DNA of 64,000 bases from Neocallimastix sp. 'constans'. Lineage: Eukaryota. The stretch is taken from contig JBODTK010000153.1 of NCBI GenBank assembly GCA_050613775.1, positions 186,001 to 250,000 on the forward strand, in the 5' to 3' direction. This document shows, piece by piece, positions 1,997-33,977 of the stretch (the stretch's first letter is position 1; each line of letters starts with the position of its first letter). Position numbers and translations under genes: made by a program. The notes below the pieces were generated by a model that saw only the letters and a list, made by a program, of their open reading frames with translations, searched no databases and had not been told where the DNA came from.

Positions 1997-2273
1997 TGTT
2001 AATTACACTTTAGTTTTTATTTAAAAATATAGTTTTATTTATTTATTTGTTTACTTTATTTATTTATTTTAAAGACCATTTTTTTCTAATTCATAAATGG
2101 TTAGTACATTTTATATACTCAATCATGTGATTATTCATTTGTTACACAATAGAATTACATTACATATATTTATGTAGTCTACATTAATTTATAATAATTA
2201 ATTACATATAGTTATATTTATTTAATTCATTTACTTATATAATAACACTCCCCCCTCAAATTAGTTTGTTTTT

Positions 2274-4994
2274 TTATTTAAAAGAAAACTCGATTTGCGA
2301 ATTCTTTAATTTTGGTCTATTAACAGATTTAGTTAAAATGTCAGCTAGCATATTCTTTGGTTCAATATATTTTAGTTTAATAATGTTTTTAGATATATAG
2401 TCGTAGTTGAAATGATATTTGATTGAGATATGTTTTAATTTTGGATTTAGATTACCATTTTCCATAGATTTAATACTTGCAGTGTTATCTGAATAAATTG
2501 TAATTGGTCTTGAATATCTGAATAGTTCATATAAAATATTTTTAATCCATAAAATCTTTTTAATACAAATTGAAGTACTAATGTATTCGGCTTCAGCAGT
2601 AGAAGTAGCAACTATTGATTGCTTCTTAGACATCCAGCATATTGGGTTATTTCCCATGAGAATAATATATCCTGAAGTAGATTTCTTGTCCTTAATGTCA
2701 CCGGCAAAATCAGAATCTGAGTATCCTAAAATTTCTCCTGTTCCATTATAACTTAATTTATAATTTTTAGTACTATTTAAATATTTCATAATGTTTTTAA
2801 CTTTTACCCAATCAGAGACTGTCGGACTTTCTGAATTCCTTGCTGCTTTGTTAACTGCAAAGGCTATATCCGGTCTTGTACACTTAGATAGGAATATGAG
2901 CATTCCTATAGCACTTTTGTAAGTGGTTTCATCAAAGGCTTGTTTATTTTCAGAAATTTTATTATCTCCCACACATGGAGTACTGACTTTCTTTAAATTA
3001 TTTATATTAAATTTGTGTAAGATATTGTTTATAAAATGAATTTGAGATATTTTATAATTGAAATTATTGTTTTCAACTTTTATACCTAAAATGAAGTCTA
3101 TTGGTCCTGATTTTGATATTTTGAAATTGTTTTTAATTTTATTAATAATGCATTTAATTTCTTTTATTTCTCCCGTAATTACCATATCGTCAACATAAAG
3201 TCCAATTAAGCATACCAGTTTATTGTTGACGATTCTTTTAAATAAACATTTTTCTGAGGTTAATTGTTTGAAACCTTGATTAATTAAGAAACTAGAAATG
3301 GTGATATACCATTGTCTTCCGGATTGTTTCAAACCATATAATGCTTTGTTGAGCTTCCAGTATCCCCTCCCAAAGTTAGTATCTCCGGGTGGAATTGTAG
3401 TATAAATATCCTTATCAAGGTCAGCATTTAGATAAGCGGCTTTAATGTCTAATTGATGAATGGGCCAATGAAATTTTGCAGAAAGAGAGAAGATCAATTT
3501 TAAACAATCGATGTTGAGTGTAGGAGAGAAAGTAAGTTCAAAGTCTATGCCATATTTTTGATTGAAACCTCTGGCAACTAGTCTTGCTTTCCATTTAGTA
3601 ATGTTACCTTCACTATCAGACTTGCATGCAAAAACCCATCTGGTAGTAATGATGGTTTTACCTTTTGGAACAAATGGGACAAAAGTCATGATTTTATTGT
3701 TGTATAGATTGTCTAGTTCTTCAGCAATAGCATTTTCCCAGCGAGAGTGGTCCTTACAGGTAACAGCCTGGTGGAAACTAGAAGGGACTTTAAAATTAAT
3801 GTTACAAATGGTTTTAGTGTTAAAATTAATTTTTCTAAATTTATTAAATACTTTTTGAGAGGTTGGACTAAGTGGTCTTTTAGATCTGAAGGGGTGTTGA
3901 GCATTATAGTTATTATAATAAACATTATTAATATCACTGTTAAAAGGTTTAAAAATAATTTTATTATTTGAATCAGAAGAATTATTATTATGTAAATTTT
4001 TGTATAAATTTAATCTACTAAAAGTAAAATTTTTAATATTGAAATTTGGTAAATTATTGGAGACGTTTTGATTATTATCAATAATTAAATTTTTAACACT
4101 TCTTCTTTTATTAAAAATGGACTTTTTGTTTACATTTTGTTTATTTGAATTGTCTTTAATGTTTATTGTACTATTTTCATAAATATTATTATTATTATTA
4201 TTATTTAAATTATTGTCCGAATTATTATTTTGATTATTATTTATTTGTATATTATCATTTGTATTTTGTAATATATTATTAGAATTATAATCACTTATAT
4301 CAAATAATTTATTAATTTTAACATCTAAATTAGGTAAAAAATTATTGTTATTTGCATTATTGTTTATATTGAAATTTTTATTAGTATTGTCTTTATTTTC
4401 ATTATTTAATTTATTATTAATTAAAAGATTTTCATTATTTGATTTTTCATAGTTAATTATTGAGTTTTTATCATTTAATATATTATTTCGTGAAAAATTA
4501 TTATTATTTAATATATTGTTTGAAAAATTTTTGTTATTATTAAATGGGTTATTATTATTTAAGGTTTGATTAGAGTTCTGATTTATTAAATTTTTATCAA
4601 TTAAGGTTTGATTAGAATTTTGATTTATTGGATTATTATTAATTAAGGTTTGTTCAATTTTTGAATCAAAATTTGAAAAATTTTTATTAATAAAATTTTT
4701 TTCACGAAAATTTTCATTTTTATTTTCATAGTTATTTGATTTTTCTTTGAGTGTAGTGTTTTGTGTGTTAATATTGGTATTATTTTTATTAGAATTAGAC
4801 TCGTTTAAACTCTTCTTATTATCTATTTTCAAAGAGGTTTCAGAATTTATATTTATTTCTTCATCTTTATTATTAACATTGTCTTTAATATTAACGTCAG
4901 GATTATCACTTGATTTATCAGAAATTAAAATAATTTTTTCATTATTTAATTTCATTTTCATAATTTTCATAATTATTCTGAGTAAAATTATCAT
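2274..4994 (-). CDS. pol: Copia B Asn-rich linker, reverse transcriptase and RNase H (frameshifted from upstream ORF)
   Basis: WKARLVARGF, QLDIKAAYL, LYVDDMV, YSDSDFAG, STAEAEY, MLADILTK. Confidence 0.93.
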   Translation of the reverse strand: MIILLRIIMKIMKMKLNNEKIILISDKSSDNPDVNIKDNVNNKDEEININSETSLKIDNKKSLNESNSNKNNTNINTQNTTLKEKSNNYENKNENFREKNFINKNFSNFDSKIEQTLINNNPINQNSNQTLIDKNLINQNSNQTLNNNNPFNNNKNFSNNILNNNNFSRNNILNDKNSIINYEKSNNENLLINNKLNNENKDNTNKNFNINNNANNNNFLPNLDVKINKLFDISDYNSNNILQNTNDNIQINNNQNNNSDNNLNNNNNNNIYENSTINIKDNSNKQNVNKKSIFNKRRSVKNLIIDNNQNVSNNLPNFNIKNFTFSRLNLYKNLHNNNSSDSNNKIIFKPFNSDINNVYYNNYNAQHPFRSKRPLSPTSQKVFNKFRKINFNTKTICNINFKVPSSFHQAVTCKDHSRWENAIAEELDNLYNNKIMTFVPFVPKGKTIITTRWVFACKSDSEGNITKWKARLVARGFNQKYGIDFELTFSPTLNIDCLKLIFSLSAKFHWPIHQLDIKAAYLNADLDKDIYTTIPPGDTNFGRGYWKLNKALYGLKQSGRQWYITISSFLINQGFKQLTSEKCLFKRIVNNKLVCLIGLYVDDMVITGEIKEIKCIINKIKNNFKISKSGPIDFILGIKVENNNFNYKISQIHFINNILHKFNINNLKKVSTPCVGDNKISENKQAFDETTYKSAIGMLIFLSKCTRPDIAFAVNKAARNSESPTVSDWVKVKNIMKYLNSTKNYKLSYNGTGEILGYSDSDFAGDIKDKKSTSGYIILMGNNPICWMSKKQSIVATSTAEAEYISTSICIKKILWIKNILYELFRYSRPITIYSDNTASIKSMENGNLNPKLKHISIKYHFNYDYISKNIIKLKYIEPKNMLADILTKSVNRPKLKNSQIEFSFK

Positions 4995-7611
4995 TTAATT
5001 CTTGTTCATTACTATTCTTGTTTGTGAAATGAAAATCGAAATTAAGAAAATTTGGGTCATTAAATTCATTTTGGTGAGTATTGGGGAGTCTTAAACTTGA
5101 AGGAGTATCTTCTAGACAATATATTTCTCTCACATGGTGTATTTTATGATCTTCATAATCCATGATTATATAGCAATGTGAGTTTTGATTGAAACCAAGA
5201 AATATACCTTTTTTAGCGTTAGGAGAAAATTTTCCCTTATTTTGTGAAAAATCTTTATAGTAAGTAATGCATCCCCAAACTCTCAGATACTTGATATCTA
5301 CCTTTCTTTTATAATATATTTCGTCAGGAATCTTATTACCTATTCCACTATGAGGCATTTTGTTGTAAATGAGATTAGCATATGTAATTGCATAATCCCA
5401 TAAATTATCACTTGTTTTACTCCAAAAGATTAAAGTTTTAGTACTTGAAATAATAGTTTGATTAAAACGTTCTACTAGTCCATTATTTTCAGGATTATAG
5501 GGAGGTGAATATTCTTTACTAATACCATTTTCGCTGCAGAATTTTTTAATTCGAATATTGTCAAATTCTTTTCCATGATCTGATTTGAAAATTTTAATGT
5601 TATTCTTGTTTTGATTATTTAGAAATTTTAACGTATTTATAACGATGTCTATTGCCTCAGATTTTCTTTTTAAAAGAAATATCCAACTCTTTCTGCTATA
5701 TTCGTCTATAATAACTAGGATAAATCTATAACCATTTACAGATTTGTTTACAGGACCCATAATGTCTGAGTGGATTATTTCTATGGTATCGGAGGCTTTT
5801 GGTGTTTCTTTATTGTGTGGATTTCTTCTCATTTTTGCAATTTTACAATCATTACAAAAATTTTCATCCACATTATGTAACTTTAAGTATTTATTCAGGT
5901 CTTTTGTGTAGTAATGACCTAGCCGTCGATGCCAAATTATTTCTTTGGCACTTCGAAAATTTTGCATGGCCATTATATTATTGCTGTTTTCTATAGGTTC
6001 GTTATTTTTATGATTATAATGATTAGGTGGTATAGCTGTGATATTTATTTCATTTCTTTTGTTTGCCTGAAAAGTTGCAACGGTTTTGTAGTTTTCATCC
6101 AAAAGGCTCATGATTACTTCATTGTTTATTTCTTCAATGAGCACTTTTGTTCCTGTTCTGGCGAATTCAATACCACTAATCATATTTTTCGCAACGTCTT
6201 TTGAATACAGAACCCTTTTTAATTTAATATAGTGATTGTTGACCTTAAAATCATACTCGCCATATCCTTCGAAGTCGCAATATGTATTATTGGCACATTT
6301 TAAAGTAACTGGATCATTAATGAAATTCTTTAAAATGTTTTTATTATTAGTTATATGTTCTCCGGCTCCAGAATCATATAACCATTGTGTTTTTTCATCT
6401 TCGTTTATATGAAAAATATTATTTAATGAATTTAAATATTCTGTAACTCTAGGAACCTTAATTTCTGATTGTTTTGAATTAATACAACTATTATTGTTTA
6501 CTTTTTCTTCATTATTATTACTTAATTCATAAATTTTGTCACAGAAGTTTATTAAACAAGTTGATTTCATATTTTCACTAGTATTTTGATCATTAGATGT
6601 GGATGGTCTATCAAGATATGGTCTAATTTGGTCATAGTTTACTTCATAATTATATTCATTATTTAAATTAGCATCATTTACGTAACCAATATATCTCTTG
6701 CTGTTATATTTTTTATTTCTATTGTAATTTTCATTATTACCCTTTTTATTTTCATTATAGTATTTATTAAATTTGCTATTCGGGTTTTTCGGGTTAAAAT
6801 AGCATTCTTTTGTGTCATGATTATTCATGTCACAAATATAGCAATATTTATCTTTTTCTTCTTTACCCTTTTTGGTATTTCTCTCATGTTCTTTGTTATT
6901 GCTATCATATTTTTGTGTTTTATTAATTCTTCTATTTTGTTTTCCTTTACCTTTAAATTTTCCAGCGTAGTCGATATCCATTGGGTCATCATGAGTTTCT
7001 TCCTTAGTAGTGTTTCCCCAATTATTAAAGTAATTCCATAATTTCAAATCTTCTTTTATTTTATTATATAGACTATCAACTGTTATATCACTATCTAAGA
7101 TAAATTTTGATTTGTAGCTTGTTGGTAAAGCACGTAAGAAATATTTTACCTTTTCCTTTTCTTCCATGGGTGCTTTTGCCTCTTTCATATTACTGAAAAT
7201 TTTAATCATTTTCTTACAGGCAGTTGGTATTTCATTTTCGGTTCTTGCTTTTATTGTTGTGAGTTTATTAATTCATTGAGTAAGGTCATTGGCTTCACTG
7301 TTATATTCAGTTTTTAAAGATTCTATAATAGCTGAGGCTGCTTCAATGCCTATGATATCCTCATGGATTTTTGGAGTAATTGAATTTATTATAATTAAAC
7401 GTACTCTTTTGTTTTCTCGTTTAGCTTTCTTAATGGCCTCAATATTAGTTGGGTCATTATCATATAATTCTTGAACAACATCCTTTTCGAGATATTCTTC
7501 TAGCTCTAGTTGTTCAACAACAGTATTGATGGAATCATACCAGATTCGATAATTTGATCCATTTAAGAATTTATTACTGCTTATGATATTTTCATTATTA
7601 TTTATCGACAT
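4942..7611 (-). CDS. gag-pol: Copia B gag-protease-integrase with one in-frame TGA at 7273-7275
   Basis: CYICDMNNHDTKEC knuckle, WLYDSGA protease, WHRRLGH..CNDC, IIHSDIMGP, KSDHGKEF, NGLVERFN; ORFs 7273-7635 and 4942-7209 share a frame and the stop aligns with a Trp in Copia C; start approximate. Confidence 0.9.
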
Positions 7612-7634
7612 TTTTATATATATGTTGTGAGCCA

Positions 7635-7649
7635 CTGAGACTCTTAATC
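7635..7649 (-). promoter_or_regulatory. Primer binding site GATTAAGAGTCTCAG, complementary to the tRNA-Lys(CTT) anticodon arm
   Basis: Directly abuts the 5' LTR; plus strand TGAGACTCTTAATC matches the remembered eukaryotic tRNA-Lys(CTT) anticodon stem-loop; identical in Copia C. Confidence 0.8.
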
Positions 7650-7904
7650 TGTTAATTACACTTTAGTTTTTATTTAAAAATATAGTTTTATTTATTTATT
7701 TGTTTACTTTATTTATTTATTTTAAAGACCATTTTTTTCTAATTCATAAATGGTTAGTACATTTTATATACTCAATCATGTGATTATTCATTTGTTACAC
7801 AATAGAATTACATTACATATATTTATGTAGTTTACATTAATTTATAATAATTAATTACATATAGTTATAATATATTTATTTAATTCATTTACTTATATAA
7901 TAAC

Positions 7905-8012
<108 letters not shown>

Positions 8013-9583
8013 GAAATTAGTAAAAAAATTAATTCAGAAATTAATTCAAATAAAATTAATGTCGAAAATCACTCAAGCAATTCAAAATTAAAAAATAAGA
8101 ATTCAAAGGAAATAAAAATAAAAATAAATAATACGAAAAATAACACAAACCTAATGAATCAAATTTATCCTGAAAACAAAATTATTGAAAACAAAAATCC
8201 TGTAAAATTCGATAAAAATCCTAAAAAAAATCATGTAGAAGTTAAAAGTAAATATAAAATTAATATAAAAAATAATTATTCAGAAAATAATCAAAAATCC
8301 AATTTACATTTAACTTTTAAAAATAAAGACAATAAAAAATTTTCAAAAGATAAAAATTTATTAAAATCGTATAAATTAAAAAATAATTTAATTAATTCAA
8401 AAAATAAAATTAATGAATCAAAAATGGACAATAATAAAAATTTTGAAAAGTTTAAAATAATTAATAATGATTCGCTAAATTTTAACAAAAATAAAAGTAG
8501 AGAATATGAAACAATAATACATATAGGAAAAAAAAAAGTTAAAAGTTTAAATAAAAATGCTAATGTAAATACAAATGTAGAGGAAAATGTAGAAGGAATT
8601 AACGTAAATGACTATAGAGGAGAAATACAAGAGAACATTAATAAAAGAAAAAGGGAATGTTTAACAAAAATTTACCAAATCATAGAACCAAATTCATATA
8701 TGGAAATTTTAAAAGAAAAGATAAAGATAAATGGATAAGTGCTATAGAAAACGAATTAAATAATATGAAAGAAAGGAAAGTATTCAAAAAGATTGAAAAG
8801 GTTCCTGAAGGAGCTAATATAATCGATTCCAGGTGGGTTTTCAAAATTAAAAGAGATAGTGAAGGAAAAATCAATAAATATAAAGCAAGGCTAGTAGCAA
8901 GAGGCTATACCCAGGAATATGGAGAAGATTATAAAGAAACTTTTTCACCAACACTAAAACAGGATTCATTAAGAATAATAATATCTATTGCTGCAGAAAA
9001 TGATTTTAGCATTCACCAAATGGATATAAAGGCAGCTTATCTATATGCCGATTCGAAGGAAGACATTTTTATGAAGATACCTGCAGGAGATCCAAATTTT
9101 GGAAAAGGATATTTTAAGTTACAAAAAGCTTTATATGGATTAAAACAGGCTGAAAGAGAATGGAATAATAATATTAGTACTACTTTAAAACATTTGGGAT
9201 TTTATGAATTAGTCAGTGAACCCTGTATTTTTATTAAGAAAAAGGATAATAAACTTGTGTGTGTTATAGGAGTATACGTAGATGATTTATTAATTACAGG
9301 TAAAGATGATGAAATTAATAAAACAGTAAGACTAATTAAAGAAAAATACTCTGTAACTGATATTGGTAAAGCAAATTTTATTATAGGTATAAAAATAGAA
9401 AGGATTCCTAATGGTTACCTTTTACATCAAGAAAGATATTTGGAAGACATACTTGAAAAATTTGGACTAAAAGATTGTAAAGAAATAGGAACTACCGAAC
9501 CAAGTTTATCTGATAAAGAAGATGATGAAGAATTATTTGATCCAACAACGTATAGATCCGCCGTAGGAAGTTTAATATATCTG

Positions 9584-10328
9584 TGTAAAGAGTTTGGAAG
9601 AAACAGATTACAAATAACAAAATACACAAAATATTTAGAAACACGTAATAAAAAAAATTCCTTTTTTTAATAAATAATCTTTTATTAAATTTAAAAGTAA
9701 ATCTCTTCTCGTTATTAACTATTTGATAGTCAATAACTAATACATCGATTTAATAATGAATTTTACATGTATTTATATTTTTTCATGATTATATTATAAT
9801 ATATTATTTCTATCTAATTTACATATATTACTATTTATTTATAAACAAAATATTTATTAATAATTTTATTAAATAATAATTAACTAAAACTAAACAATAA
9901 TTAATTCAATAAACTTTCAACTTATTTACAATAATAATTAAATTCAATAAAAACACATTTATTAGATATTTATAAATATTATTAATACTAATGTTTATAT
10001 ATTTACAATTCAAAACTATTTTTATAAACTATTTAAACTAATTTTAACTATTTAAAACTATTCCGAAATTAATTTTAAAGTATTTTAAACTAACTAAACT
10101 AAGTTAAATAGAATAACTATTTTAAATAAACTAAATTAACTAACTTAAATAAATTATTTAAATTAAATTTATTATCCAAAATTATTTAAATAATAATTTA
10201 TCCTTTATGAAAAGTTTACATAAATTTATAATTAATTTTCATACACGTAAATCATAAATTTATGTAATTTTATTACATTAATTAATTATTATATAATTAA
10301 TTATTAAAGATTTTATTAAATCTTTACA
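9584..10328. mobile_element. Solo LTR (745 bp) inserted in Copia A RT
   Basis: Ends TGTAAAGA...TCTTTACA; TSD ATCTG at 9579-9583 and 10329-10333; removal restores GSLIYL-AICTRPDI. Confidence 0.93.
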
Positions 10329-13300: not shown

Positions 13301-14640
13301 ATACAGAATGAACAAATAATACTAATTGTGCTAGAATAATATAAATTATTCTAACCTTATAGATTATTCTATTCTATATAATTGGAACTTTCCAATATTC
13401 TTCAAATATTACTAAATAGAAATCTTAAGTTAATAAATCACCAATTAAAATATAATTCCTTTTTGAATTATTGATCCGATTCCATTATAAAGTATTAAAA
13501 ATCTTTAGCCAAGAATATTGTCCTTGCCCACTTAATATATTAATATTATATTTCTTTTGTAATATGTTATATTGAAAATAATCAAATCTATTTAATTAGT
13601 TATTAAAATTTTCGTTATCAATTTAAATTTATTTTTAATTACTAAATTTAACTAAACCACAATTAAAATATTCTGTATAATTTCTTTATTTTTATTTTAT
13701 ATATATTAATATTAAACTATTATTAAATAATTAATAATTCAATAATATAATACTAATATTTATAACAATAATATTATTAACTAAAATAATAATTCAATTT
13801 CAATTTAAATGTTTTATTTATTAAAATAATTAGTAATTAGTTTATTAAGAAATAGTTAGGCTTTACAAATTTTAAATTGATAAAAAAATATAAATACATG
13901 TAATTTTTAGTGAAATAAAATATAATCAATAACTTACTTTTATTAAATAAATAATTATATCATTATTTTTCTTTTATAAATTTAAATAAATAAATAATGA
14001 TTTTAAAACAAATTATTTTTTTTTTATTGTAATTTAATTATTTGTGTTAATTATTATTATATTCCTAAAACTATATGAACCATACCAATTTGATAAATAA
14101 CAAAATTATTAAATTAAAATAAATAATAAAGAACAAATTCTTGTCTAACTTAACCCAAAAATTAATCCATTCTAAAAAAAATTAAATCCATATTAAAGAA
14201 AATTTAATTAAATAAAATAATTAAAATAAAATAATAATAAATTAATTAATCATTAATAATTTTAATTGAAAACTAAAATAAATTAATAAATAATATTTTT
14301 CTAAAACTACAAATAAACAAAATAATAAACAAATTTAATAAATTATAAATAACAAATAAACAAACTTATAAACATCTCAAAATTAAAATTAAATAATTAA
14401 ATAATTTTTAAGTTACTTTTATTTAAAATAATGATTATTTTATTTATTTTATAACTCAACTTTTATAAACAAATTGTAATTAAAATAACATTTTAAAACT
14501 CATCTTTATTAATATTTTAATTGTAAATATTGTTTAATTTAATAATAAATTATTCTTTATATCTCTTTTATTAATTTTATTATTTTTAATGTAAATAGTT
14601 TAAAATCAAAGAAAAATATAAAAACATGTAAATATTTCTT

Positions 14641-14878
14641 ATTAATTATTTAATAAATTATTATAGATATTTTATTATTTTTAATAATCAAAAAGTATGA
14701 TTATTAATTATTTAATAAATTATTATAGATATTTTATTAGTTTTAATAATCAAAAAGTATGATTATTAATTATTTAATAAATTATTATAGATATTTTATT
14801 AGTTTTAATAATCAAAAAGTATGATTATTAATTATTTAATAAATTATTATATATATTTTATTAGTTATTAATAATCAA
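14641..14878 (+). repeat. 62-bp tandem repeat, ~3.8 copies
   Basis: Units start at 14641, 14703, 14765 and 14827 (ATTAATTATTTAATAAATTATTATAGATAT...CAAAAAGTATGATT). Confidence 0.9.
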
Positions 14879-15911
14879 TTTTATTATTAAAATTTAAAAT
14901 AAATTTGTATAAATAATAAATATTTCATTTTATTATTTGTAAAATAAAATAATAGCTTAAGTCGGCGAGGACAGACTATAATTTATTTTACACTATTTTA
15001 TTTTATCAACACTATAATTAATTATTAAATAAAACACTAAAACTAAAAAACTAATTTAATTTTTTGTTTTATAAAAAAAATCCTTTTATTAATATTTCTT
15101 ATTTGTTGAATTTAACTATTCTAAAATCAACAATCACTTAACTGGGTACCGTAGGGTCCTTTACCGGAAAGCCTACTAGCAGTTAAGATTTTAAAATAAA
15201 ATTTAAAATAAAATTTGTTTTATAAAAGATAACTATTCTAATAATAGTTATAATACTAATTAATAAAATATAAAATTTGTACTATCTATCTTATCTATAA
15301 TATTTCCTATACTATTCTATTTTCTAACTAAACTATACTATTTTCTATACTATTTTCCAACTATCGTTCAATAGTTGAAAATTAACTCTTTTTATACTTT
15401 TTGAAAATTAAAATTTAAATTGAATAGATTGTAATAAACTAACTAAAATATTATTATATATTTGTAATTACATTTAATAATAAATTACATGAAATGTTAT
15501 GAATTATTTTAATATAAAAACTATTTAAAACTATCTAATATTTCTAAAAATAAATAAACAAAACGGCAAGTTTTTGTAAACAAACGGAAAAGGCAATTTT
15601 TCTTTGATTATTTTAATTTAACTAATTTATGACTAATTATTTTTAATTTACAAGTTTCATGACTAATTATTTTTAATTTACAAGTTTCATGATTCAAAGT
15701 GAGTAATAATGATGTAAATTCTCCAAATAATTTAGTCATACATTTTTGAGAAAATTAATTAAATTAATAATTTGGAATACATTTAAATTTATATTAAAAA
15801 TTTGGAAAACATTTTTATCCACAATAATTTACATTACATTACATTTAAATACGTATTCAAATTATTAAATATTTTACATGCCCCTCTGTTTAAGTCGAGC
15901 CCCTGAGCGAC

Positions 15912-18900
15912 TTATAATCTAGAAGGAACTCTATTTGTTTTATTGAACTCTTGAACTAATTGAGGATCAGTGATTTCATCTTCAGACAACCAAGTACATT
16001 CAGTAGCTGGAAGTCCTTTCCATAACATAAAGTAAAAAGGTTTATTGTTAACAACTTTAGCGGCAACAATCTTCAAAGGTTCCTTTCCTTCAGTATCAGT
16101 AGCGATCGAAGTAATTCGAGTATTAGTACTTGCACTTGATTCATTAAATTCTCTTTCATTGTAAGGTTCTAGATTTGAAATATGGAAAACATTATGGCAT
16201 TTAATAGTATCAGGTAATTCTAATTTATAAGAAACAGGGCCTGTTTTTTCAATAATTTTAAAAGGACCGAGTTTTCTGTTAGTCAATTTAGAAGGACCTT
16301 TTGGAAGTAAGTCTGGACGCTTTAACCAAACTTTATCACCTACTTTTAATTTTGGTCCTACAATTCTTAAGTGATCTGCATATCTCTTATATCTTTCCTT
16401 AGCTTTATCTAAATTTTTCTTGAGGAATTGCATGTTTTTCCTTATTTGTTCAACATGGTCAATGGTACTTGTTCTTCTGCTATCAGCAGGTATAACTGGA
16501 TTGAATTTTGGATAAAAACCATAATTTGAGAAGAATGGTGTCTGATTAGTCGATTGTTGTAATGTGTTATTATATGCGAATTCAGCATAAGGAAGAATGT
16601 CCATCCAGTTATTTTTTCTTTTGTTAATATAGCACCTTAAAAATTGTTCTAATATACCATTAACTCGTTCAGTTTGACCATCTGTTTGAGGGTGATGTGC
16701 TGTTGACAAATTTTGACGAATATCTAATAAACTACAAAGTCTTTGCCAGAATTCGGAGGTGAATTGAGATCCTCTATCGGAAGTAATATCTTCTGGTAAT
16801 CCGTGTAAACGAAAAACTTCTCTAAAAAATACATCAGCAGCGATTTGAGTGGTAGGTATACTCCTAAATGGAATAAAGTGAGCCATCTTTGTTAATCTAT
16901 CAACTACGACCATTATAACTGTTTTGTCTCTTGACTTAGGTAAATCAGTTATAAAATCCATTGAGACTGAGGACCATGGTCTTTTTGGAGTAGGAAGAGG
17001 TTGAAGTAATCCATAAGGACGGTGGCGATCATCTTTTACTTGAGCACATGTTTTGCATGATGCGATATACTTAACAATATCGGAAGTCATCTTAAACCAA
17101 ACAAAATTTCTACTTATAATTTCTTTGGTTTTGAGAATACCAAAATGACCTTGAACTGGATTATCATGATGAATAGCAATGATAATATTTCTCATCTTCT
17201 TTGGAACGAAAATTAAACCCTTATATAATAATAAACCTTCTTCGTCAATAGTAAAGTCTTTCATTTTATTTTTATATTTATTATTAGAAGTAGATTCTCC
17301 TTTTTTGATCTTGATTAATTCTTGTATGACTTCATCATCTTTAATTTCTTTTATCAATTCATCTTTTAAGTTCCCTTGAATTGCAACTAAACATAAATCT
17401 TCTGTAGCTTCTTGTATTGTAAGACAAGCTGAAGTTTCTTTTTCATCATCTATTTCTTGATTTTCATAATCTGGTCTTCTCGAAAAAGCATCTGGTTTTC
17501 CACCTTCTTTTCCTGGTCTATATTGTATTTTGTAATCAAATCGAGATAAGAATAAGTTCCATCTTATTTGACGTTGAGATAACAACTCAGGTTTACGTGG
17601 AAAAGTTAAATTTTTATGATCGGTATAAATTGTAAATTGATGCTTAGCCCCTTCTAAGTAATGTCTCCATTCTTGTAACGCACACTTGACAGCTAATAAT
17701 TCCTTGTCATATATTGGATAATTCTTTTCAGATTTTGTTAAACCTCTTGAATAATAACAAATTGGATGTAATGCGTTTGTATATTTTTGTCTTTGAGATA
17801 ACACAGCACCGATTGCAAAATTACTTGCATCTGTCTCTACTATAAACGGTAAATCCGGATCTGCATGAACAAGTATTGGCTCTTTTGTAAAGAGTTTCTT
17901 TAAAGTTTCGAATGCGGCAGAACATTCCTCAGTCCATTCATATTTAACATCTTTTCTTGTTAAGTTGTGTAACGGCTTAGCAATTTTAGCAAAGTTTGGG
18001 ATGAATCTTCGGTAGTAGTTGCATAAACCTATAAATGATTGTACTTCTTTGACTGTAGTTGGTATTGGCCATTCTAAGATAGACTTAACTTTATCCGGAT
18101 CCATGGAAATTCCTTGATTGGATATTACGTGCCCCAAGAATGTTGTTTTCTGGACTTCAAATTCACACTTACTTAATTTTGCATAAAGACCACTTTCTTG
18201 TAATTTCTTAAGTATTTTCTTAACATGTGTACGGTGTTCTTCTAATGTCTCAGAATAAATAAGTATATCATCGATATAGGCAAAAGCAAATTCATCTAAG
18301 TATTCTCCTAAAACGTCATTAATAAAGTGTTGGAAAGTTGCTGGAGCATTCTTCAAACCAAATGGCATAACAAGATATTCGAAATGACCATATCTTGTTC
18401 GAAATGCTGTTTTATATTCATCACCTTCACGTATTCTTACCAGGTTATAAGCTGATTTTAAATCTAACTTAGTAAAATACTTAGCTTCTCTCAATCTGTC
18501 AAAAAGCTCGGTGATTAAAGGGAGTGGATAGGAGTCCCTTATAGTATTTTCATTAAGTCTTCGATAATCGACACAGAGTCTTAAACTTCCATCCTTTTTT
18601 CTAACGAATAAAATTGGAGCACCAGCAGGAGATGTTGAAGGTCTAATGAAGCCTTTTTCTAAATTTTCTTTGATATATTCTTTTAAAGCTTCACGTTCTT
18701 CTTCCGTTAATGGATATAATGGTCCATAAAATAAGTCTACATCATCCTTTAATCTAATTTTACAGTCGTATGGACGGTGTGGTGGTAATTCGTTACACTC
18801 TTGTTCATCAAACACATTTTTGAATTTCTCATATTGTTTTGGTATTCTTTCCAAACTTTTATTTTCTTTAACACTTTCATTATTATAATCACATTTAATA

Positions 18901-20480
18901 ACACTTTTATCTTTATTTTCATTTTTTAAAACATAACAGAAAGCATAATTTTCAAATTTTCCTTTATTTAATTCTTTTCTTTTAATACATTTTTCTTTTT
19001 TAACTAAGGCTTTTTTCATAATAGCCTTTATATTACGTGATTTTTTACTACATAATTTATTTTTATTATCGACTAATTTTTTAACATCATTATTATCTAA
19101 ACTATCTAATACATTATTATAATTATTAATAATTTCTCTAGCTAATTGTATCTTACTTCGGCGGATTTCATCTTTTTTCTTCTTTTCTTCAGTTGTTCTT
19201 CTCATAATATCTTCAGCGGTGGCACAACAATTTCTCTTGCAGTATTGGGAACTGAATCTGATATTACCTTTATCAAATTCAATTGTTGGGCAATGCTTCT
19301 TCAACCATGGATTTCCTAAAATAACCGAAATTCCTTTTGGTAAACTATAAATGTAAAATTGAATGGTTTCGATATGTTGACCCATGACCATAGTTAATGG
19401 AATGGTTTCATAACGAATTGTTCCATTTCCGTTAAATCCGATAACGTTTTTCTCATGGCGGATTCGTTGTACTGGGATCTGGTATTTATCGGCGGTAGCT
19501 CTATCCATAATATTAAGATCTGAGCCAGTATCTAGAATTGCGGACATAATAAAACCATTTTTGTACTTAAAAACAACATTGTAAGTGTGAGCTAAACTTT
19601 TCTCGCTCAATTTAATCTGTAAGATCTTTTCTCTTCTTCTAATTTTGTCCTGTTGCTTGGGACAGTTTTCCTTTAAGTGACTTGTGCTCTTACATATAAA
19701 ACACTTCTTCGGTTTGTTTGACCTCTTTGGTGAAGAATCCCTGTAATTTTGGCTACTTCGGTAATTATTTTGGTAACGACTTGATCCTAAGTCCCTACGA
19801 AAAGGTCTAATTCTTCTTTGATCTATATCCATTGGGTCATTTCCATTAACACGACGATCTTCTTCAGCATTAGCAGCTACAACATTAATTAGTTCATTAA
19901 TTCTTCTAATTCTAGGATAAATTAGTTTGGTTCTTTCTTTTTCTCTTGTTGGTAAACCCTCAATGAAAAAATGGATTTTAGCTTCGTCATTAAATGATGA
20001 ATCTCTGGCTATTTTCTCGAACTGATTGCAGTATTCGGCTATTGTTCTAAATTGTTGGCTACGTATCTTGGTAAGTCGACTGTTCGCGACATCTGAACTC
20101 GCACAGGATTTGTAACGTTGTTGCAAAGCGTCAATAAAATTCTCGTAATTTTCCAATAGTGGACTTTCTTCTTTAACTAGATCAGCAAACCATTCAGCAG
20201 CGTTTCCCTCCAAATAACTACTTATGATATCAATCTTGAATTCGTCATCAGCAGCAGCTTCTTCGTCTAAATTGTACTTAAAATATCGGTTGATTTGACC
20301 AAGGAAGGCTGGTAGTTCGTTTCTTCTTCCGGAGAATGCTTTTGGTTTCGGAATGAGGCGTGCCCTGGTATTGACGTTATTACCAACCTCATTTTCTATT
20401 TCCATGGAGCTGGCTTCAGAGGCTGCGTCAAAGTCTCCCCTAGCTCCTGGATGTTGATTGTTGATATTTATGTAATTCAT
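15912..20480 (-). CDS. gag-pol: Gag-Pol polyprotein (gag, CCHC, protease, RT, RNase H, integrase, chromodomain-like C-terminus)
   Basis: PKPKAFSG, CFICKSTSHLKENC, ILDTGS, LRLCVDYR, AYIDDILIY, VETDAS, SMDFITDLP, QTDGQTER, YFMLWKGLPATECTWL; first ATG taken as the start (MNYIN). Confidence 0.95.
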   Translation of the reverse strand: MNYININNQHPGARGDFDAASEASSMEIENEVGNNVNTRARLIPKPKAFSGRRNELPAFLGQINRYFKYNLDEEAAADDEFKIDIISSYLEGNAAEWFADLVKEESPLLENYENFIDALQQRYKSCASSDVANSRLTKIRSQQFRTIAEYCNQFEKIARDSSFNDEAKIHFFIEGLPTREKERTKLIYPRIRRINELINVVAANAEEDRRVNGNDPMDIDQRRIRPFRRDLGSSRYQNNYRSSQNYRDSSPKRSNKPKKCFICKSTSHLKENCPKQQDKIRRREKILQIKLSEKSLAHTYNVVFKYKNGFIMSAILDTGSDLNIMDRATADKYQIPVQRIRHEKNVIGFNGNGTIRYETIPLTMVMGQHIETIQFYIYSLPKGISVILGNPWLKKHCPTIEFDKGNIRFSSQYCKRNCCATAEDIMRRTTEEKKKKDEIRRSKIQLAREIINNYNNVLDSLDNNDVKKLVDNKNKLCSKKSRNIKAIMKKALVKKEKCIKRKELNKGKFENYAFCYVLKNENKDKSVIKCDYNNESVKENKSLERIPKQYEKFKNVFDEQECNELPPHRPYDCKIRLKDDVDLFYGPLYPLTEEEREALKEYIKENLEKGFIRPSTSPAGAPILFVRKKDGSLRLCVDYRRLNENTIRDSYPLPLITELFDRLREAKYFTKLDLKSAYNLVRIREGDEYKTAFRTRYGHFEYLVMPFGLKNAPATFQHFINDVLGEYLDEFAFAYIDDILIYSETLEEHRTHVKKILKKLQESGLYAKLSKCEFEVQKTTFLGHVISNQGISMDPDKVKSILEWPIPTTVKEVQSFIGLCNYYRRFIPNFAKIAKPLHNLTRKDVKYEWTEECSAAFETLKKLFTKEPILVHADPDLPFIVETDASNFAIGAVLSQRQKYTNALHPICYYSRGLTKSEKNYPIYDKELLAVKCALQEWRHYLEGAKHQFTIYTDHKNLTFPRKPELLSQRQIRWNLFLSRFDYKIQYRPGKEGGKPDAFSRRPDYENQEIDDEKETSACLTIQEATEDLCLVAIQGNLKDELIKEIKDDEVIQELIKIKKGESTSNNKYKNKMKDFTIDEEGLLLYKGLIFVPKKMRNIIIAIHHDNPVQGHFGILKTKEIISRNFVWFKMTSDIVKYIASCKTCAQVKDDRHRPYGLLQPLPTPKRPWSSVSMDFITDLPKSRDKTVIMVVVDRLTKMAHFIPFRSIPTTQIAADVFFREVFRLHGLPEDITSDRGSQFTSEFWQRLCSLLDIRQNLSTAHHPQTDGQTERVNGILEQFLRCYINKRKNNWMDILPYAEFAYNNTLQQSTNQTPFFSNYGFYPKFNPVIPADSRRTSTIDHVEQIRKNMQFLKKNLDKAKERYKRYADHLRIVGPKLKVGDKVWLKRPDLLPKGPSKLTNRKLGPFKIIEKTGPVSYKLELPDTIKCHNVFHISNLEPYNEREFNESSASTNTRITSIATDTEGKEPLKIVAAKVVNNKPFYFMLWKGLPATECTWLSEDEITDPQLVQEFNKTNRVPSRL

Positions 20481-20625
20481 CTTATTATTATTATTTATTA
20501 AACTATAAATTAAACTATAAAGTATTACTAAATCCACTTTTTAATTATTATTTCAAAAAAAAAAAAAAAATTTTTATACTATTACTAGTCTATCCTACAC
20601 AAAGGTAAACTATACTAATCTAAGG

Positions 20626-20636
20626 AGTTGGAAAAT
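20626..20636 (-). promoter_or_regulatory. Self-priming-type PBS ATTTTCCAACT
   Basis: Abuts the 5' LTR; 11-nt perfect complement at 21051-21061 inside the LTR, ~30 nt downstream of a minus-strand TATAAAA (21089-21095). Confidence 0.8.
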
Positions 20637-21607
20637 TGTAAAATAAAATAATAGCTTAAGTCGGCGAGGACAGACTATAATTTATTTTACACTATTTTAT
20701 TTTATCAACACTATAATTAATTATTAAATAAAACACTAAAACTAAAAAACTAATTTAATTTTTTGTTTTATAAAAAAAATCCTTTTATTAATATTTCTTA
20801 TTTGTTGAATTTAACTATTCTAAAATCAACAATCACTTAACTGGGTACCGTAGGGTCCTTTACCGGAAAGCCTACTAGCAGTTAAGATTTTAAAATAAAA
20901 TTTAAAATAAAATTTGTTTTATAAAAGATAACTATTCTAATAATAGTTATAATACTAATTAATAAAATATAAAATTTGTACTATCTATCTTATCTATAAT
21001 ATTTCCTATACTATTCTATTTTCTAACTAAACTATACTATTTTCTATACTATTTTCCAACTATCGTTCAATAGTTGAAAATTAACTCTTTTTATACTTTT
21101 TGAAAATTAAAATTTAAATTGAATAGATTGTAATAAACTAACTAAAATATTATTAAATATTTGTAATTACATTTAATAATAAATTACATGAAATGTTATG
21201 AATTATTTTAATATAAAAACTATTTAAAACTATCTAATATTTCTAAAAATAAATAAACAAAACGGCAAGTTTTTGTAAACAAACGGAAAAGGCAATTTTT
21301 CTTTGATTATTTTAATTTAACTAATTTATGACTAATTATTTTTAATTTACAAGTTTCATGACTAATTATTTTTAATTTACAAGTTTCATGATTCAAAGTG
21401 AGTAATAATGATGTAAATTCTCCAAATAATTTAGTCATACATTTTTGAGAAAATTAATTAAATTAATAATTTGGAATACATTTAAATTTATATTAAAAAT
21501 TTGGAAAACATTTTTATCCACAATAATTTACATTACATTACATTTAAATACGTATTCAAATTATTAAATATTTTACATTATTTTATTAGTTTTAACAATT
21601 ATTTTAT

Positions 21608-21682
21608 GCCATGTTGGTCCAGTCGGTTAGGACGATACAGGTCACTGTAGAGGGCGGGGTTCGAATCCTCGGCATGGCACCA
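21608..21682 (+). pseudogene. tRNA(Asp/Glu)-like SINE head with A and B boxes, defective anticodon arm and encoded CCA
   Basis: Acceptor GCCATGT/GCATGGC, D arm GTCC-AGTCGGTTA-GGAC, T loop GGTTCGAATCC; the loop around GTC is too short for a canonical tRNA. Confidence 0.75.
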
Positions 21683-22055
21683 AATAATCGGATGAGGTTT
21701 CTATCCTGGGATATCATGAGACCACACGTGATGTCCATAAGGCTTTCCCTCAGATGATTATTTCACCCAACCCTGATACTACGCTTTGAATTGAAGCATA
21801 GACCTTGATGATTGTAAAATTTCCAATCGCCAATGATTACACCCACTAGGGAGGAGTTAATGGTTCCATTCTGATGCTCGTGGTCATTAGAGATATATGT
21901 AGGAACGTTAGGAATGCATCTCCGGGCAGTGTGTAACGACGATTGAGAGCGGCGAAGCTGATACAGTATGCCAATAACTCATCACCTTACAGTTAATTAA
22001 TAACTGTATGGCCATATGGGAGATGGGTACCCATATGTGCAAGTCTATGTTTTTT
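21608..22055 (+). mobile_element. tRNA-derived SINE, full-length copy
   Basis: tRNA-like head 21608-21682, ~370-bp GC-richer body, short T tail; TSD TAACAATTATTTTAT at 21593-21607 and 22056-22070; second copy at 27701-28107. Confidence 0.9.
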
Positions 22056-24085
22056 TAACAATTATTTTATTAATTTAAACAAAATTAATTATTAAATAAA
22101 TAAAGATTAATATTAAAATAAAAATAAATTTTTTTTAATAAAACATTTTTGTGTTTAATAATAAAACATATTTATTTTTTTTAAATTTCTTAAATCTATT
22201 TTATTCAGTATTTATCCTTTTATTCACTTCTACAAAATTTAATTTTTGTAGATTAAGAATATCAGGTATAAATCAAATTTTGATCCGGAATTAGCTTATT
22301 TACTTCAAATAAGCATATATAAAATGATAAAAAGAAAAAAAATATAAAATGGTTATAATAATGAAATTATTTAAAATTAAAATAGTTATAATAAAAAAAA
22401 AATTATTTATAATAAAATTATTTATAATAAAAATAATTATCTATAAATTGCTTTTAATAAATAAATACAGAAATATTTAATTCTGTATAAAATTAAATCG
22501 ATTGGCAATACTAACTATTATTTTTATTGTTTTCTCTAAAATAGATTATTATTTTCTGTATTCTTTTTACAATAATAAACTTTATGAGAATATGATATTA
22601 ATAATTTACAAGAATATTAAATTATATATTAATTGATAAATTAAAATATTATTAGAATAGATAGTTATTTTAAATATAAATAAATCATTAATAATTATAC
22701 AACTATATTTTAAAATAGATACTTTAGAATAGGTTAATTTTAAAATATATTAATATTAAAATAACATTCATAATAGAATAATATAAATAAATTTATAATT
22801 TATATTTTAATGATCAATTCAAGATTCATGTAAAAAATAACTATAAAAGGAAGAAATTTTCTTTCTTTTGAAAAAGGGATGACAATAAAATAAAATAAAA
22901 ATTTATAAAATACTTTTAAACTAATAAAAATTTATTTATTTAATATTGTGTTTTTAAAATATTGTGTGTGATCTGTGCCCATATCAATTTTAGGATTCGT
23001 TACAGTTAATATCAAACCTATTTTTCTTTAACGAATCAACTCCAATTAGAATGTCGAAAAGGTCATCTTTTTCAATTACTCTAAAATGATCTTGGAAAGT
23101 CTTGTCTCCTATAGTTACTTCTAGATCATATATTTCGGATTCAATCGTCGGGTTTGAACAAGCTTGAAAAATAGTTTCTGAGATTCTTCCCATGGCAGGT
23201 TTGTTTATATTATATTTTTCTAAAGCAAATCTTGTAATAGCATTAACACTAGCGCAAGTATCTAAAAATATCTCACAATTGGTATTTTCAACTTTTCCTT
23301 TTACTTTAATTATTTTAAATTTATTAACTATTGTCATTACATTATTAATAGCATTACTTTTAGGAGTAAGCTTCAAAGCTTTACTAAATGCTATTCTGAA
23401 TTTTGGGAATAGATCAAGTAAGTATCCTAATTTAGTAATAACTTCATTAGATGCAACTTCTTTTAATAGATCTTGTATTAAATAATCATCAAATTGTTCT
23501 ATTAATTTAATATGTTTTTTTTTAGATTCTTTGTTGTTACTTTACGAAGGTGGAGATTTCTTTGTATTTTCAATAATATCTTTAATTCTTTCTTCATGGT
23601 TGTTTCTTTTACTCGATCTAATATTCTTCTCAGCTATAATTGAAGGATCTAAGTACTCCAATTTTTCGGTTTGATTACTATTAAAGGTAGTTTTATTATT
23701 TTTATCTAAAGAAGTATTCTTATCTATGGTATTTGTAAACTTATTTTATTAATTTCATTATTTGGTATACCATTTTCAATATCATCTTTAATCATAATTA
23801 CATCTTCAATTGGTAAAGTATAAGTTTCCACATTTTGATTCTTTTGGTTATGCTCCTTTTTTCCTTAATCAAGACAAGCATCATATTTGTTGTTATGACT
23901 CATAACTACTGTTTGAATCGGCGTCGGATTATTCTTTAATGTATCATTGGATTTCTCTTAATTATAAGGAATGGATCTTACGTTTTTTTCTTTTTTTTTC
24001 TGACAGCTGGTGCAAGAACTTCAATTAGTTTATTAATACGTAAAGGTTGATAATTTGATATTGATTTATTATGGTTATTCATATT

Positions 24086-24118
<33 letters not shown>

Positions 24119-27100
24119 ATTGTTACTATTATTATTACTATTTCTATTATTATGATAACAATTATTATCATTGTCTTCCATGGGGTTGGTTTGTTTACTA
24201 GAAGTTATCCTTCTCCCATTTAGTGGTTTAAAGATTTGTTGATCATTCCCCTTTCTTCCATTTCCGCTAATTTTTTGAACGAATAGGGGCAGTTTGAAGC
24301 CTTGTGCCCATATTGGAAACAACGGAAACAAGTAGTTTTCCTATTTTGGTAGTCTTTATTAAAATTTTTATTATATTCCTATTTGGAATAACCTCTGGAT
24401 TTCTACTTATGGTGGTTGTAAGTATATTAGCATCAATACCGTATTTATTGTCATATACGTTACTATTTTGAGAAACTGCAGTAGATATATTGTTGGTATT
24501 GTTATCGTTATTGATATTATTGTTTTTATAATTGTAATTAGAGTTATTACTATTTTGCATTCTATTAGGTAAATAATTATAATTATAGTTGTTATCCATG
24601 ATATTATTCATATTTTGATTGACGTTAGTATTATAATTACTATTGAGATTCATAAATCTCGAACTATTACTAAAGTTTCTGTTGTTCCTTCTAAAAGGTA
24701 GACGAAAATTATTATTGTAAATATTTCTATTGGTACTTTGATTTATATTATGTTGATAAGAAGGTTCTTCATAAAAATTCTGATAGAATGGATGGTTCAT
24801 TATAGGGCTATCCAAATTTTGCACAAACATTAAATTAGATCTATTCTTATTATTATCTTGCCCAATATTAATGATTATTTCTTTTTCAGCTTCTTCGGAT
24901 ATTTCAGCTACCTTAAAAGCTTCAGATAAAGTTTCACATTCGGTTGTAATAACTCTTTAACAAGGAAAGACCCGTGTACTTATAGCAGTAGTATAGTCCT
25001 TTATTGAAATTAGTTTTTGATATTCTCTTGGTAGGCCTTTGTATAATATTTTGTATCTATAATTAAATATTTTTATAGTTTCTTTATTATTAATTTTTAA
25101 TAATTTTAATACTGCACATTTATCATTAGGTGTGATGTGCAAGTACTCCTCAACGGCAGCTTGGATTTCTTTAAAGTTGGGATATCTAACTTCGTTTCCA
25201 TTCTTACTTTTTAAAGAGTTTTAGCCCCCATGCATGTCTTCTTCGACTGCTTCTTTGGCCCAAACAAAAATTCTTCTTGGTTCCACAACATCGTAGAGCT
25301 CCATCACTCTGACGAATTCATGCATCCATCCATCAACATCTTTTCCATAGTCGATGAGATTTGGTAATGCTTTCTGTAATTTGGCAGCGTTAATCATAAT
25401 AAATAGAATTTATAAAAGAAGTAATATAAAATAGTTATTTATTTATAATATAATAATTGTTTTGTAAAAAAAATGAAGAAATAAAAAAGAATTGTTTTAT
25501 AATAATATAATAAATGCTTTTGTACTATAAATATATAAAATAAAAAAAATGAATGAATTAAAGTATAGTAATTTCTCTTATTATTTTCATATTATTTTAT
25601 CTTGCTTCCGCCCGGATTCTCCACCAATTTTGATACGATATTTTTATATATTGTACCTTTTATATGATTTGGGAAAGCAAGTTGTAAAATTATAAAATAA
25701 TATATTCTAATAAAAGAAATAAATAAAAAAAATTATAACACAAAATTAATAATAAAGTTTTAATGAATAATTGTTAAGAAGTAGACAGATTGAATTTAAT
25801 GACGGAATCAGGTTGATATATCTATATAATATAACTATATAGATATAAATAAATTACTAAAATAAAAGAGTTATAAAGTTAAATTTGTTAATTTAACACT
25901 TAATTAAAACTAATAATTGGTTTGGTATGATAAAAAAATTTTATTTATTAATAAGAAAAATATAGTTATATTATAATAGGTTAACTATAACCTTACAAAG
26001 AACAAAAAGATAAATTTGAATTTTCTTTTTATACTTTGTAAGTTTGAGAATATTGATAATAATAATATAAAGTTGATAATAATAATATATAGTATAAGAA
26101 TATGTTTAATATAAATAAATTATATTTTTTAATCTAATATATTAGCTAATATATATAATATAATATTAAATTTAAATATTTAATATAGTAATTGATAATT
26201 AATAATTAATTAAATCAATATAACATAAATTAATACATAAACATTAATTTATGAATCAAGGATGACATGACCAAATGATTCATGTTGAATAAATATTTTA
26301 TTTATTAATAATATTTAAGTTTAATATGATATCATTAGAATCAGTAGGCCTAAGCTGGTCCTAAGATGATCAAATAACTTATAATATTATAAAATAAATA
26401 AAATTTAAAGAATAATTAATGAATTATAAATTTTTATTAATTATTTTGTTATTAATAATTTAATTGAAATTAATTGAAATTGAAATTTAATTCAGTTGTA
26501 ATTTCAACAATATGTTAAAGCTTTTAGATAATTTGGTCTTAACGATTAGGTCAAGTGCCAAATTATAGTAATTTATTAATTTATAACTTAAATTTACTCT
26601 TATTTAAAACATTATTGTTATTAGTAAATTTTAAATTTACTCTTATTTAAACATATTGTTATTAGTAAATTTTATAATTAAGTTTTTATTTAAAATATAA
26701 ATTTTATTTAATCTTAATAATATTTTATTACATTATTATTTTATATAATTATTTACTATAATTTAAATTACAATAATCCTACAAAGGATTAATCAAAAGA
26801 TTTAAACATGTATTTATATAAAATAATTAATTATTAAAATATTAATTTTTAATATGAATATGTAATAGTATTAATATAAGTTTGATATTGATAATATAAA
26901 CTAAGATAATAATATAAATATTTAATATAAATAAAATATTAGAATATAATATTTGCTAAATATTATATTTTATAATTAAAATATAATATGTAGAAATTAA
27001 TTTAATGACAATCACGTGTTTACATTATTGATATGCGGGACTTTTATGTGCTACTAATTTTTAATAGTATCGTTATATTTAATTAACCTTTATTAATATA

Positions 27101-27700
27101 TTTTAATTTAAAAACCCAATTAACCAAGGGTCTTCTCTAAACTACAATCAAGAAGAGTAGTTATTAGGAATCTTTATAATAATTTAATTATTAATAATAA
27201 TAAATATACATTTAAAATATATTATATCGGAGTATAGTATAATATAATAAATATACATTAAAATAATAAATATAATAAATATAACTATATAATTCTTAAA
27301 ATGAAAATAAGAATAATAAAGTTAAATATATAAGAATATAATTATATAATAAATATGAATATAATAAATAATATCAACTATATATATTTAATTATAATTA
27401 AAATAACTAAAACCATTTCATTATATATATATTATAATATATAGAAGTATTATGTATTTTTAATATAAATTTTAAAATAAACATGAATAGTTAAGTTATA
27501 TATATAATATTCTTATTATATATATTTAGAAGAAATTAACTATTTAATTTAATATATTTAATATATTTCATATTATAATGAATAATATATATATGAATAT
27601 TGAATAATATATGAATTAGAAATTATTTCAAATATTATTATTGACAAAATAGATATAAATTTAATATTTAATAATTATTATTAAATATACAAATATGTTA

Positions 27701-28107
27701 AAACATAGACTTGCACATATGGGTACCCATCTCCCATATGGCCATACAGTTATTAATTAACTGTAAGGTGATGAGTTATTGGCATACTGTATCAGCTTCG
27801 CCGCTCTCAATCGTCATTACACACTGCCCGGAGATGCATTCCTAACGTTCCTACATATATCTCTAATGACCACGAGCATCAGAATGGAACCATTAACTCC
27901 TCCCTAGTGGGTGTAATCATTGGCGATTGGAAATTTTACAATCATCAAGGTCTATGCTTCAATTCAAAGCGTAGTATCAGGGTTGGGTGAAATAATCATC
28001 TGAGGGAAAGCCTTATGGACATCACGTGTGGTCTCATGATATCCCAGGATAGAAACCTCATCCGATTATTTGGTGCCATGCCGAGGATTCGAATCCCGCC
28101 CTCTACA
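27701..28107 (-). mobile_element. 5'-truncated second SINE copy inserted in the Gypsy F 3' LTR
   Basis: Reverse complement of ~21646-22052 with two substitutions seen; TSD TATACAAATATGTTA at 27686-27700 and 28108-28122; empty site visible in the other LTR at ~34890-34910. Confidence 0.93.
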
Positions 28108-28730
28108 TATACAAATATGTTACTACACATATTTGTTTTATACTTTTATATCAGAAATGCCCTCGCTAAAATAGCTGATTACTGGTGAAATTGAAATTTA
28201 TCTCTATACGAGAACAATTCTCAATTGAATCTGTAAATTAGCTACAAATTCAATAATAAGTTGAAATGATCATAGTTCAAATAAGGAAAAATATAAAATT
28301 AAAAGAAATTTTATATTTTTGTGAATAATTATTAAAATATGTATTAATAAAAATTAATTGTATTATTTGAAAATTTTATAAAATTTTTAACTCAATTTTT
28401 GAAAATTTTTCATTAATAAAAAAAATTTTTTTTTTTTAAAATAATTATATATAATTTTGATATTATAATAATTAATATATATAATTATTAATAATTAATT
28501 TTGAATTTTAATTTGGAAATTTATTTTGAAATTTTGAAATTTCAATTTCGAAAATTTAAAAATAAAATTAATTATGAAATATATATAAGTTAAATGTCCT
28601 ATTAGCATAAATATGAATAATATTTTGCTATTTTAACAGTAAATATTAAAATGAATTGCTGAAATTTAAATTCAAAATTTTGAAATTTATTATTATTTAT
28701 TATATTTTTTTATTTATAATTGATTTTTAC

Positions 28731-31700: not shown

Positions 31701-32427
31701 GAGTCATCATTATCAAATACTCTAAAGACTGCATTAATTTTTAGAGTACCAATTTGTACTTCTAATTTTACTATTTCATAAACACGTTCTTCCGTATTAG
31801 ATAATGCCTGATGCACTCTACCAGAAGTAGAACCAACTATGGTATAATTTTTAATATTTTTATTTAGAAAATTTCTGGTTACCAAATTTGTATTACTACC
31901 ACCATCAATTAATACAGCAGCAGAATGACCATTAACCGTACCATTGACAATAGCAATATCGTGTTCTTGAATTTCTCTTGTAGCGTAGCAATGGGTAGGA
32001 TTATTTACTATTTCAAATTCTTCTATATCATTATGATATTCTGCACATCCTACCACTGCATCATCATCCTCAGTTCTTACTTTTTTAAAACTTTTAGTGA
32101 TATCCGAACGTAGGGCACTACTTATACCTATTAATTGGGCCAAAGTAATATTTACTGGGGTATTTTGTAATTCTTCTATAATATCATAAGGTTCAATACC
32201 CTCTAATAATTTAATGATTTGGCCTACCCTAGTAGTTTTTTTTTTCTTATTATTTTGTTCCAATATTTTTGTACTATTATTTTTATCGTTAAATTTATTA
32301 CCAATATTAGATGCAGGTATATTTAATTCCACTGAATCTATGTCAATTTTGTTTTCCAATGTGCCATTTTTATTATTATTTTTATTATTTTTATTATTAT
32401 TATTATTATTATTATTTATATTATTAC

Positions 32428-32458
<31 letters not shown>

Positions 32459-33894: not shown

Positions 33895-33977
33895 GGTTTT
33901 GTTAGTACTACTATTATTATGTTCACTACTGCTACTACTACTACTACTACTACTACTTCTCATAAAAGAAAATTAAT

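Follow-up and report, generated by a model that had tools for sequence, protein, structure and literature searches.

Copia elements whose primer site lies against the interior of a tRNA have been described before. The primer site of the fungal FunCo1 elements, ATTAAGAGTCT, is the complement of a stretch inside tRNA-Lys (Donnart et al. 2017, PMC5445492), and the FunCo1 clade extends over 270 fungal species, almost all of which are Pezizomycotina (filamentous ascomycetes). In the hemivirus group, which comprises Drosophila copia, yeast Ty5, Osser and 1731 and has been described as non-monophyletic, initiation takes place from nucleotide 40 (PMC1181622). Internal sites for other tRNAs are known as well: the Candida Tca elements carry one for tRNA-Arg (UCU) (PMC4139406), Copia/Helenus elements of rust fungi have anticodon-loop sites for Tyr, Ile, Asp/Asn and iMet (PMC10886601), and among plants, where internal or half-tRNA sites for Met and Ile occur, Bianca uses a half tRNA-Ile (PMC6317226). 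Primer switches are described as recurrent in these sources (PMC4139406, PMC10886601, PMC6317226).

The stretch of DNA analysed here, called the window throughout, is 64,000 nucleotides long and holds two Copia elements, B and C (Table 1). Given its GC content of 22% and the origin of the nearest named proteins to B and C, which are those of Orpinomyces and Piromyces, the host appears to be an anaerobic gut fungus. In both elements the Pfam domains run in the order Retrotran_gag_2, Pol_BBD, gag_pre-integrs, rve and then RVT_2, and this domain order, together with the copia-type reverse transcriptase (RT), the TG...CA LTRs and the polypurine tract, places them in Ty1/Copia (Pseudoviridae). Both are young elements, with LTR pairs that are identical in 250 of 256 alignment columns (B) and in 320 of 320 (C). 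The two RT ORFs share 63% identity across 539 aa; B and C thus represent two families of one lineage, and their primer sites are therefore not independent origins. The first ATG of Copia B lies 38 nt past the LTR end, and its gag-protease-integrase region shows frame breaks near 7272 and at 4942-4994. In both elements the frame changes in an Asn-rich linker between integrase and RT (B, 4942-4994; C, 56760-56815), which may reflect mutation, sequencing error or a programmed shift. These young elements are also represented in RNA-library contigs.

Table 1. Features of Copia B and Copia C in the window.
Feature	Positions	Strand	Detail
Copia B whole element	1997-7905	minus	
Copia B 5' LTR	7650-7905	minus	256 nt, TG...CA
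Copia B candidate primer-binding site	7636-7649	minus	14 nt complementary to tRNA-Lys(CTT) 27-40, adjoins LTR
Copia B bases past site	7628-7635	minus	2 more bases common to C, then 5-nt inverted partner
Copia B gag, protease, integrase region	4942-7611	minus	
Copia B reverse transcriptase-RNase H ORF	2274-4994	minus	RVT_2, E 1.5e-63
Copia B polypurine tract	2248-2257	minus	
Copia B 3' LTR	1997-2247	minus	251 nt
Copia C whole element	52572-58932	plus	
Copia C 5' LTR	52572-52891	plus	320 nt, TG...CA
Copia C candidate primer-binding site	52892-52905	plus	14-mer identical to that of B
Copia C bases past site	52906-52919	plus	predicted 5+3 bp hairpin with site
Copia C gag-protease-integrase ORF	52967-56815	plus	
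Copia C reverse transcriptase-RNase H ORF	56760-58592	plus	RVT_2, E 3.2e-59; frame differs from gag-protease-integrase ORF
Copia C polypurine tract	58604-58612	plus	
Copia C 3' LTR	58613-58932	plus	same sequence as 5' LTR

Most of the window consists of nested LTR elements. Copia B has inserted into an (AAT)n tract that belongs to an Asn-rich frame of an older third Copia (1445-2002 and 7884-9670, plus strand), the RT of which (8645-9670) is 43-48% identical to those of B and C, and Copia C sits inside a very long (ATT)n tract (52100-52571 and 58933-59510). A contig from run X6 carries the same C LTR end with an (ATA)n tract after it, and this, together with the setting of C, hints at targeted insertion into AAT microsatellites. 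Five bases match on either side of each element, a match that is uninformative as a 5-bp target-site duplication inside (AAT)n tracts. Elsewhere, an intact-looking chromovirus-type Gypsy element (15082-21578) has a 1542-aa ORF with a chromodomain (15912-20540, minus strand) and long LTR-like repeats in which some blocks are 100% identical. Broken Gypsy-type fragments with pieces of protease, RT, RNase H and integrase lie at 1-900, 22990-33972 and 36140-38371, and a tandem repeat with a 62-nt unit in about five copies at 14577-14948. A tRNA-derived, SINE-like element (21608-22049, plus strand) consists of a tRNA-like head, with no readable anticodon, and a GC-richer body; its second copy (27704-28107, minus strand) is 5'-truncated and 99.5% identical over 404 nt.

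A sequence-only reading of this DNA had claimed that B and C, both inserted in microsatellites, share an identical 15-mer directly against their 5' LTRs although these LTRs differ, and that neither has a TGG-type primer site. All of this is borne out, and the identity in fact covers 16 bases. The 15-mer has two exact matches in the window, at 7635-7649 (minus strand) and 52892-52906 (plus strand), each starting at the first base past the terminal CA of the LTR; the block common to the two elements comprises 21 bases, of which 5 belong to the LTR end and 16 lie past it. Allowing up to 3 mismatches, the window holds 5 matches as against 1.19 expected from shuffles; the three weaker ones (7193, 22251 and 38019), with 2-3 mismatches each, were set aside, and inspection of that at 22251 found no LTR end upstream of it. 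For a given 14-mer to occur at one fixed place has a chance of 3.4e-9 under the composition of the window. A self-BLAST of the window gave no match between the LTRs of B and C, and no TGG lies within the first 13 bases past either LTR, Copia B having one at +16. The lack of a TGG-type site is a trait of self-primed elements too, and would suit an element that uses the 5' end of its own RNA as primer, in the style of Tf1, or the 3' end of another RNA. However, in B as in C the first 20 bases past the LTR are complementary to the LTR of the same element over a run of 5 nt at most, which sets them apart from the Tf1 type, with its site complementary to the 5' end of its own LTR transcript, and the LTRs differ while the site stays identical. 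For another RNA, an Rfam search of the window found nothing, the full host small-RNA set lying outside this comparison. We give these two forms of priming hardly any credence.

Over its first 14 bases the site is perfectly complementary to positions 27-40 of tRNA-Lys(CTT), such that C40 of the tRNA pairs with the first base past the LTR. This holds for tRNA-Lys(CTT) from animal-like, giant-virus-like and phage loci and for the spliced form from an ascomycete-like locus. Among 187 distinct tRNAs, drawn from loci gathered in scans of sequence collections, a complementary run of at least 14 was found in 9 of 14 Lys(CTT) genes, the best other isotype reaching 8 and the Met tRNAs falling outside the top isotypes. 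The anticodon-arm match that had been proposed for this tRNA therefore stands, but its length of 15 nt does not: a run of 15 is reached by only one of the 14 Lys(CTT) genes, base 15 varies among elements, and base 26 of the host tRNA is probably G (see below), with which site base 15 cannot pair. The proposed resemblance to the layout of copia and Ty5 is likewise upheld, as an LTR-adjacent complement of the anticodon stem-loop that ends at tRNA position 40 and has no TGG. No tRNA-Lys was found in the window itself; scans of viral contigs supplied reference tRNA-Lys genes, and in these contigs neither a relative of the B/C RT nor an element recognised by its site was detected.

By analogy with copia and Ty5, it is very probable that a cut 5' half of tRNA-Lys(CTT) binds to the site and serves as the primer. 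On that analogy, a host nuclease would cut tRNA-Lys(CTT) after position 40, the 5' half would anneal to the element RNA over 14 bases, and the reverse transcriptase would extend the new 3'-OH into the LTR to give minus-strand strong-stop DNA. If G26 of the primer is dimethylated, plus-strand copying would be expected to end at position 27, and we propose, from this general tRNA chemistry, that such a stop may be the reason why 14 bases are kept fixed while base 15 drifts. The place and time of the cut are not readable from sequence, and full-length tRNA-Lys might instead be packaged and annealed first and be cut only in the particle, where the RNase H of the element or a nuclease packaged alongside would act, and possibly not at 40. 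The LTR-end base before the site is an A, which could pair with tRNA position 41 (T in the reference gene used as bait below), giving a primer 3' end at 40 or 41. However, an end at 41 would cut into the terminal CA of the LTR, nucleotide 40 is given as the start point in hemiviruses (PMC1181622), and a review attributes the end of the Ty5 primer to cleavage by host RNase P (PMC5371799). We regard a cut within the particle as improbable, and infer by analogy that these elements work like hemivirus-type and FunCo1 elements.

On the host side, contigs from four runs of two labelled organisms were compared with the L167 tRNA-Lys gene, whose anticodon arm fits the site, as bait (160, 90, 9 and 3 contigs), all runs compared being assembled contigs. 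Family C is present in 20 of the 24 listed runs. Organism B (runs X6 and X9, from one sample), which contains 91-92% of the words of family C and need not be the species of the window, aligns to the bait without gaps and with 4 mismatches across tRNA 3-47, 3 across 3-42 and 1 across 17-47. These counts come from separate, short contigs of similar depth, and the arm is deduced from them on the assumption of one gene family, in which case they imply 0 mismatches over tRNA 17-42. The tRNA-Lys of organism B thus appears to possess the anticodon arm needed by the site, G at position 26 and no intron. The sequence-only reading had named a host tRNA-Lys(CTT) lacking this arm as the finding that would speak against it; the inferred identity of organism B to the bait over 17-42 points the other way. 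Among 49 metagenome loci from a scan designed to catch one, no anaerobic-fungal tRNA-Lys gene was found.

The search for relatives used the site as its pattern, to which relatives without the site are invisible. The 49 metagenome loci comprised 4 elements, 7 tRNA-Lys genes of other organisms, 1 tRNA-like relic and 37 loci dropped as chance. In the four elements (L171 and L198, L173 and L192), the 14-mer follows an LTR-like end. L171 and L198 are one family, called an element from layout only, as is the degenerate L192, with no protein match at E 1e-5 for L198 or L192; L173 has gag, protease and integrase matches. A scan of genome contigs gave one element among 33 loci, the other 32 being dropped as they had no Copia protein match. 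This element, L234, lies on a contig of 2400 nt and 25% GC that encodes a Copia RT and has an LTR followed by the same 16 bases; it was found in a Methanobrevibacter (methanogen) metagenome bin and is likely a misbinned contaminant. Its LTR lies downstream of the RT and is yet followed by a primer site, which suggests a tandem array with one common LTR. Site base 15 is G, A, A and G in the four further elements (L171/L198, L173, L192 and L234), all of which are AT-rich, and in three of the four runs compared with C a contig carries the 21-base block and then diverges, with no variant base listed inside the site. A tree was built for 154 RT-RNase H sequences, chosen among the 337 of 383 that cover at least 400 aa; in it, B, C and L234 fall together with Orpinomyces-labelled proteins in one clade of 19 (support 0.996). 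Since L234 has the same site although its RT is only 46% identical to that of B, the site spans this clade. It looks clade-wide among Neocallimastigomycota Copia, and has likely been passed down within one Copia clade of these anaerobic gut fungi.

The bases after the site raise a further question, namely whether the site acts as part of a hairpin past the LTR, like the conserved, tRNA-independent hairpin site proposed for fungal GalEa, with the tRNA match as a relic. In both B and C a 5-bp stem is predicted to fold over the site, and when the 14-mer was fixed and the tail shuffled, 12 (B) and 4 (C) of 1000 controls folded as well; in L198 and L173 the stems reach 10-11 bp, past what the search pattern required, four of the partner bases being selected by it. 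Under whole-region dinucleotide shuffles, however, 46 (B) and 16 (C) of 200 folded as well, which is unremarkable, the choice of three of the five hairpins was partly due to the search pattern, and L234, found without a hairpin constraint, has no inverted partner. A universal hairpin is not established by these results. Moreover, the 14-mer is invariant while its partner varies, and fungal GalEa differs in having a palindromic CTGATCAGT hairpin site and the motifs KSRLVI, QTDD and CQPEA, none of which was found in B or C, where KARLVA, YVDD and TRPDI accompany another site. We consider a hairpin role in place of tRNA priming very improbable. The bases past the site may also have another partner: the inverted partner in Copia B, which would form the predicted weak hairpin, could also pair with tRNA 22-25, and an unbroken run of eight bases in L234 is the complement of positions 10-17 of the ascomycete-like tRNA-Lys, with the register kept exactly. 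The three mismatches of organism B within tRNA 3-16, whose positions in that interval are not located, are compatible with that D arm. Both the hairpin over the site and the D-arm pairing of L234 are for now only leads, drawn from predicted pairing; if true, the dual pairing of L234 would show the whole 5' half as the primer.

Set beside the described systems, the site of B and C comes closest to that of FunCo1: ATTAAGAGTCT is identical to bases 2-12 of the B/C site, and both are Copia elements of fungi (PMC5445492). They differ in that FunCo1 is almost entirely a Pezizomycotina clade, whose primer is not called a half tRNA in the accessible text of that paper, whereas B and C occur in Neocallimastigomycota and belong to their own supported RT clade; its readable supplements contain no mention of anaerobic fungi or chytrids. 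With hemivirus-type elements B and C share a site complementary to the anticodon stem-loop and a predicted initiation at nucleotide 40, but those use initiator tRNA-Met, with biochemical or genetic proof for copia and Ty5, while Lys(CTT) is read here from sequence (PMC1181622, PMC8515867, PMC5371799); the initiator tRNA-Met half that marks the genus Hemivirus is therefore not the primer that the site of B and C matches. Like the Tca, rust Copia/Helenus and Bianca elements, they belong to the Copia superfamily and have an anticodon-arm site of an elongator tRNA, although the tRNA and the hosts are others (PMC4139406, PMC10886601, PMC6317226), and the extensive pairing seen at some Tca sites (PMC4139406) is hinted at here only in L234.

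B and C may or may not be FunCo1 elements themselves: their site agrees with that clade, and their host lies outside its usual range. No identifiable FunCo1 RT was found in protein, representative and cluster searches; in the 154-sequence tree, which includes no identified FunCo1 RT, the outside neighbours of the B/C clade are weakly supported (0.53-0.70), and of 20 representatives that were looked up, 4 are labelled pseudoscorpion and 0 ascomycete. Named ascomycete matches to B and C are few and 29-32% identical in integrase. One may tentatively suppose, though we think it rather unlikely, that the gut-fungal Copia clade acquired half-tRNA-Lys(CTT) priming independently of FunCo1, and with an extended or regulated (hairpin-gated or bipartite) site. 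On this joint supposition, the site of most families would be masked by an inverted partner in a hairpin, which the tRNA half would have to open, and L234 would pair with the anticodon arm (27-40) and the D arm (10-17) at once, each in exact register.

The primer type had been put forward as one not described in these fungi. For fungi at large this does not hold, the internal tRNA-Lys site of FunCo1 having been published (PMC5445492), and the primer type is already known. In the literature searched, outside which Repbase, GyDB and subscription papers lie, there is no report of the site in anaerobic gut fungi, and it is only the host lineage, Neocallimastigomycota, that is new.

No new mechanism is revealed by these elements. 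Rather, they carry a published but little-studied primer type, the internal tRNA-Lys site, beyond the filamentous ascomycetes into a fungal phylum that diverged early, and LTR annotators that seek only the 3' ends of tRNAs will miss the primer site of this clade. If half-tRNA priming is confirmed, one versus two origins of the primer in fungi becomes a testable question, and these fungi must make extendable 5' halves of tRNA-Lys.
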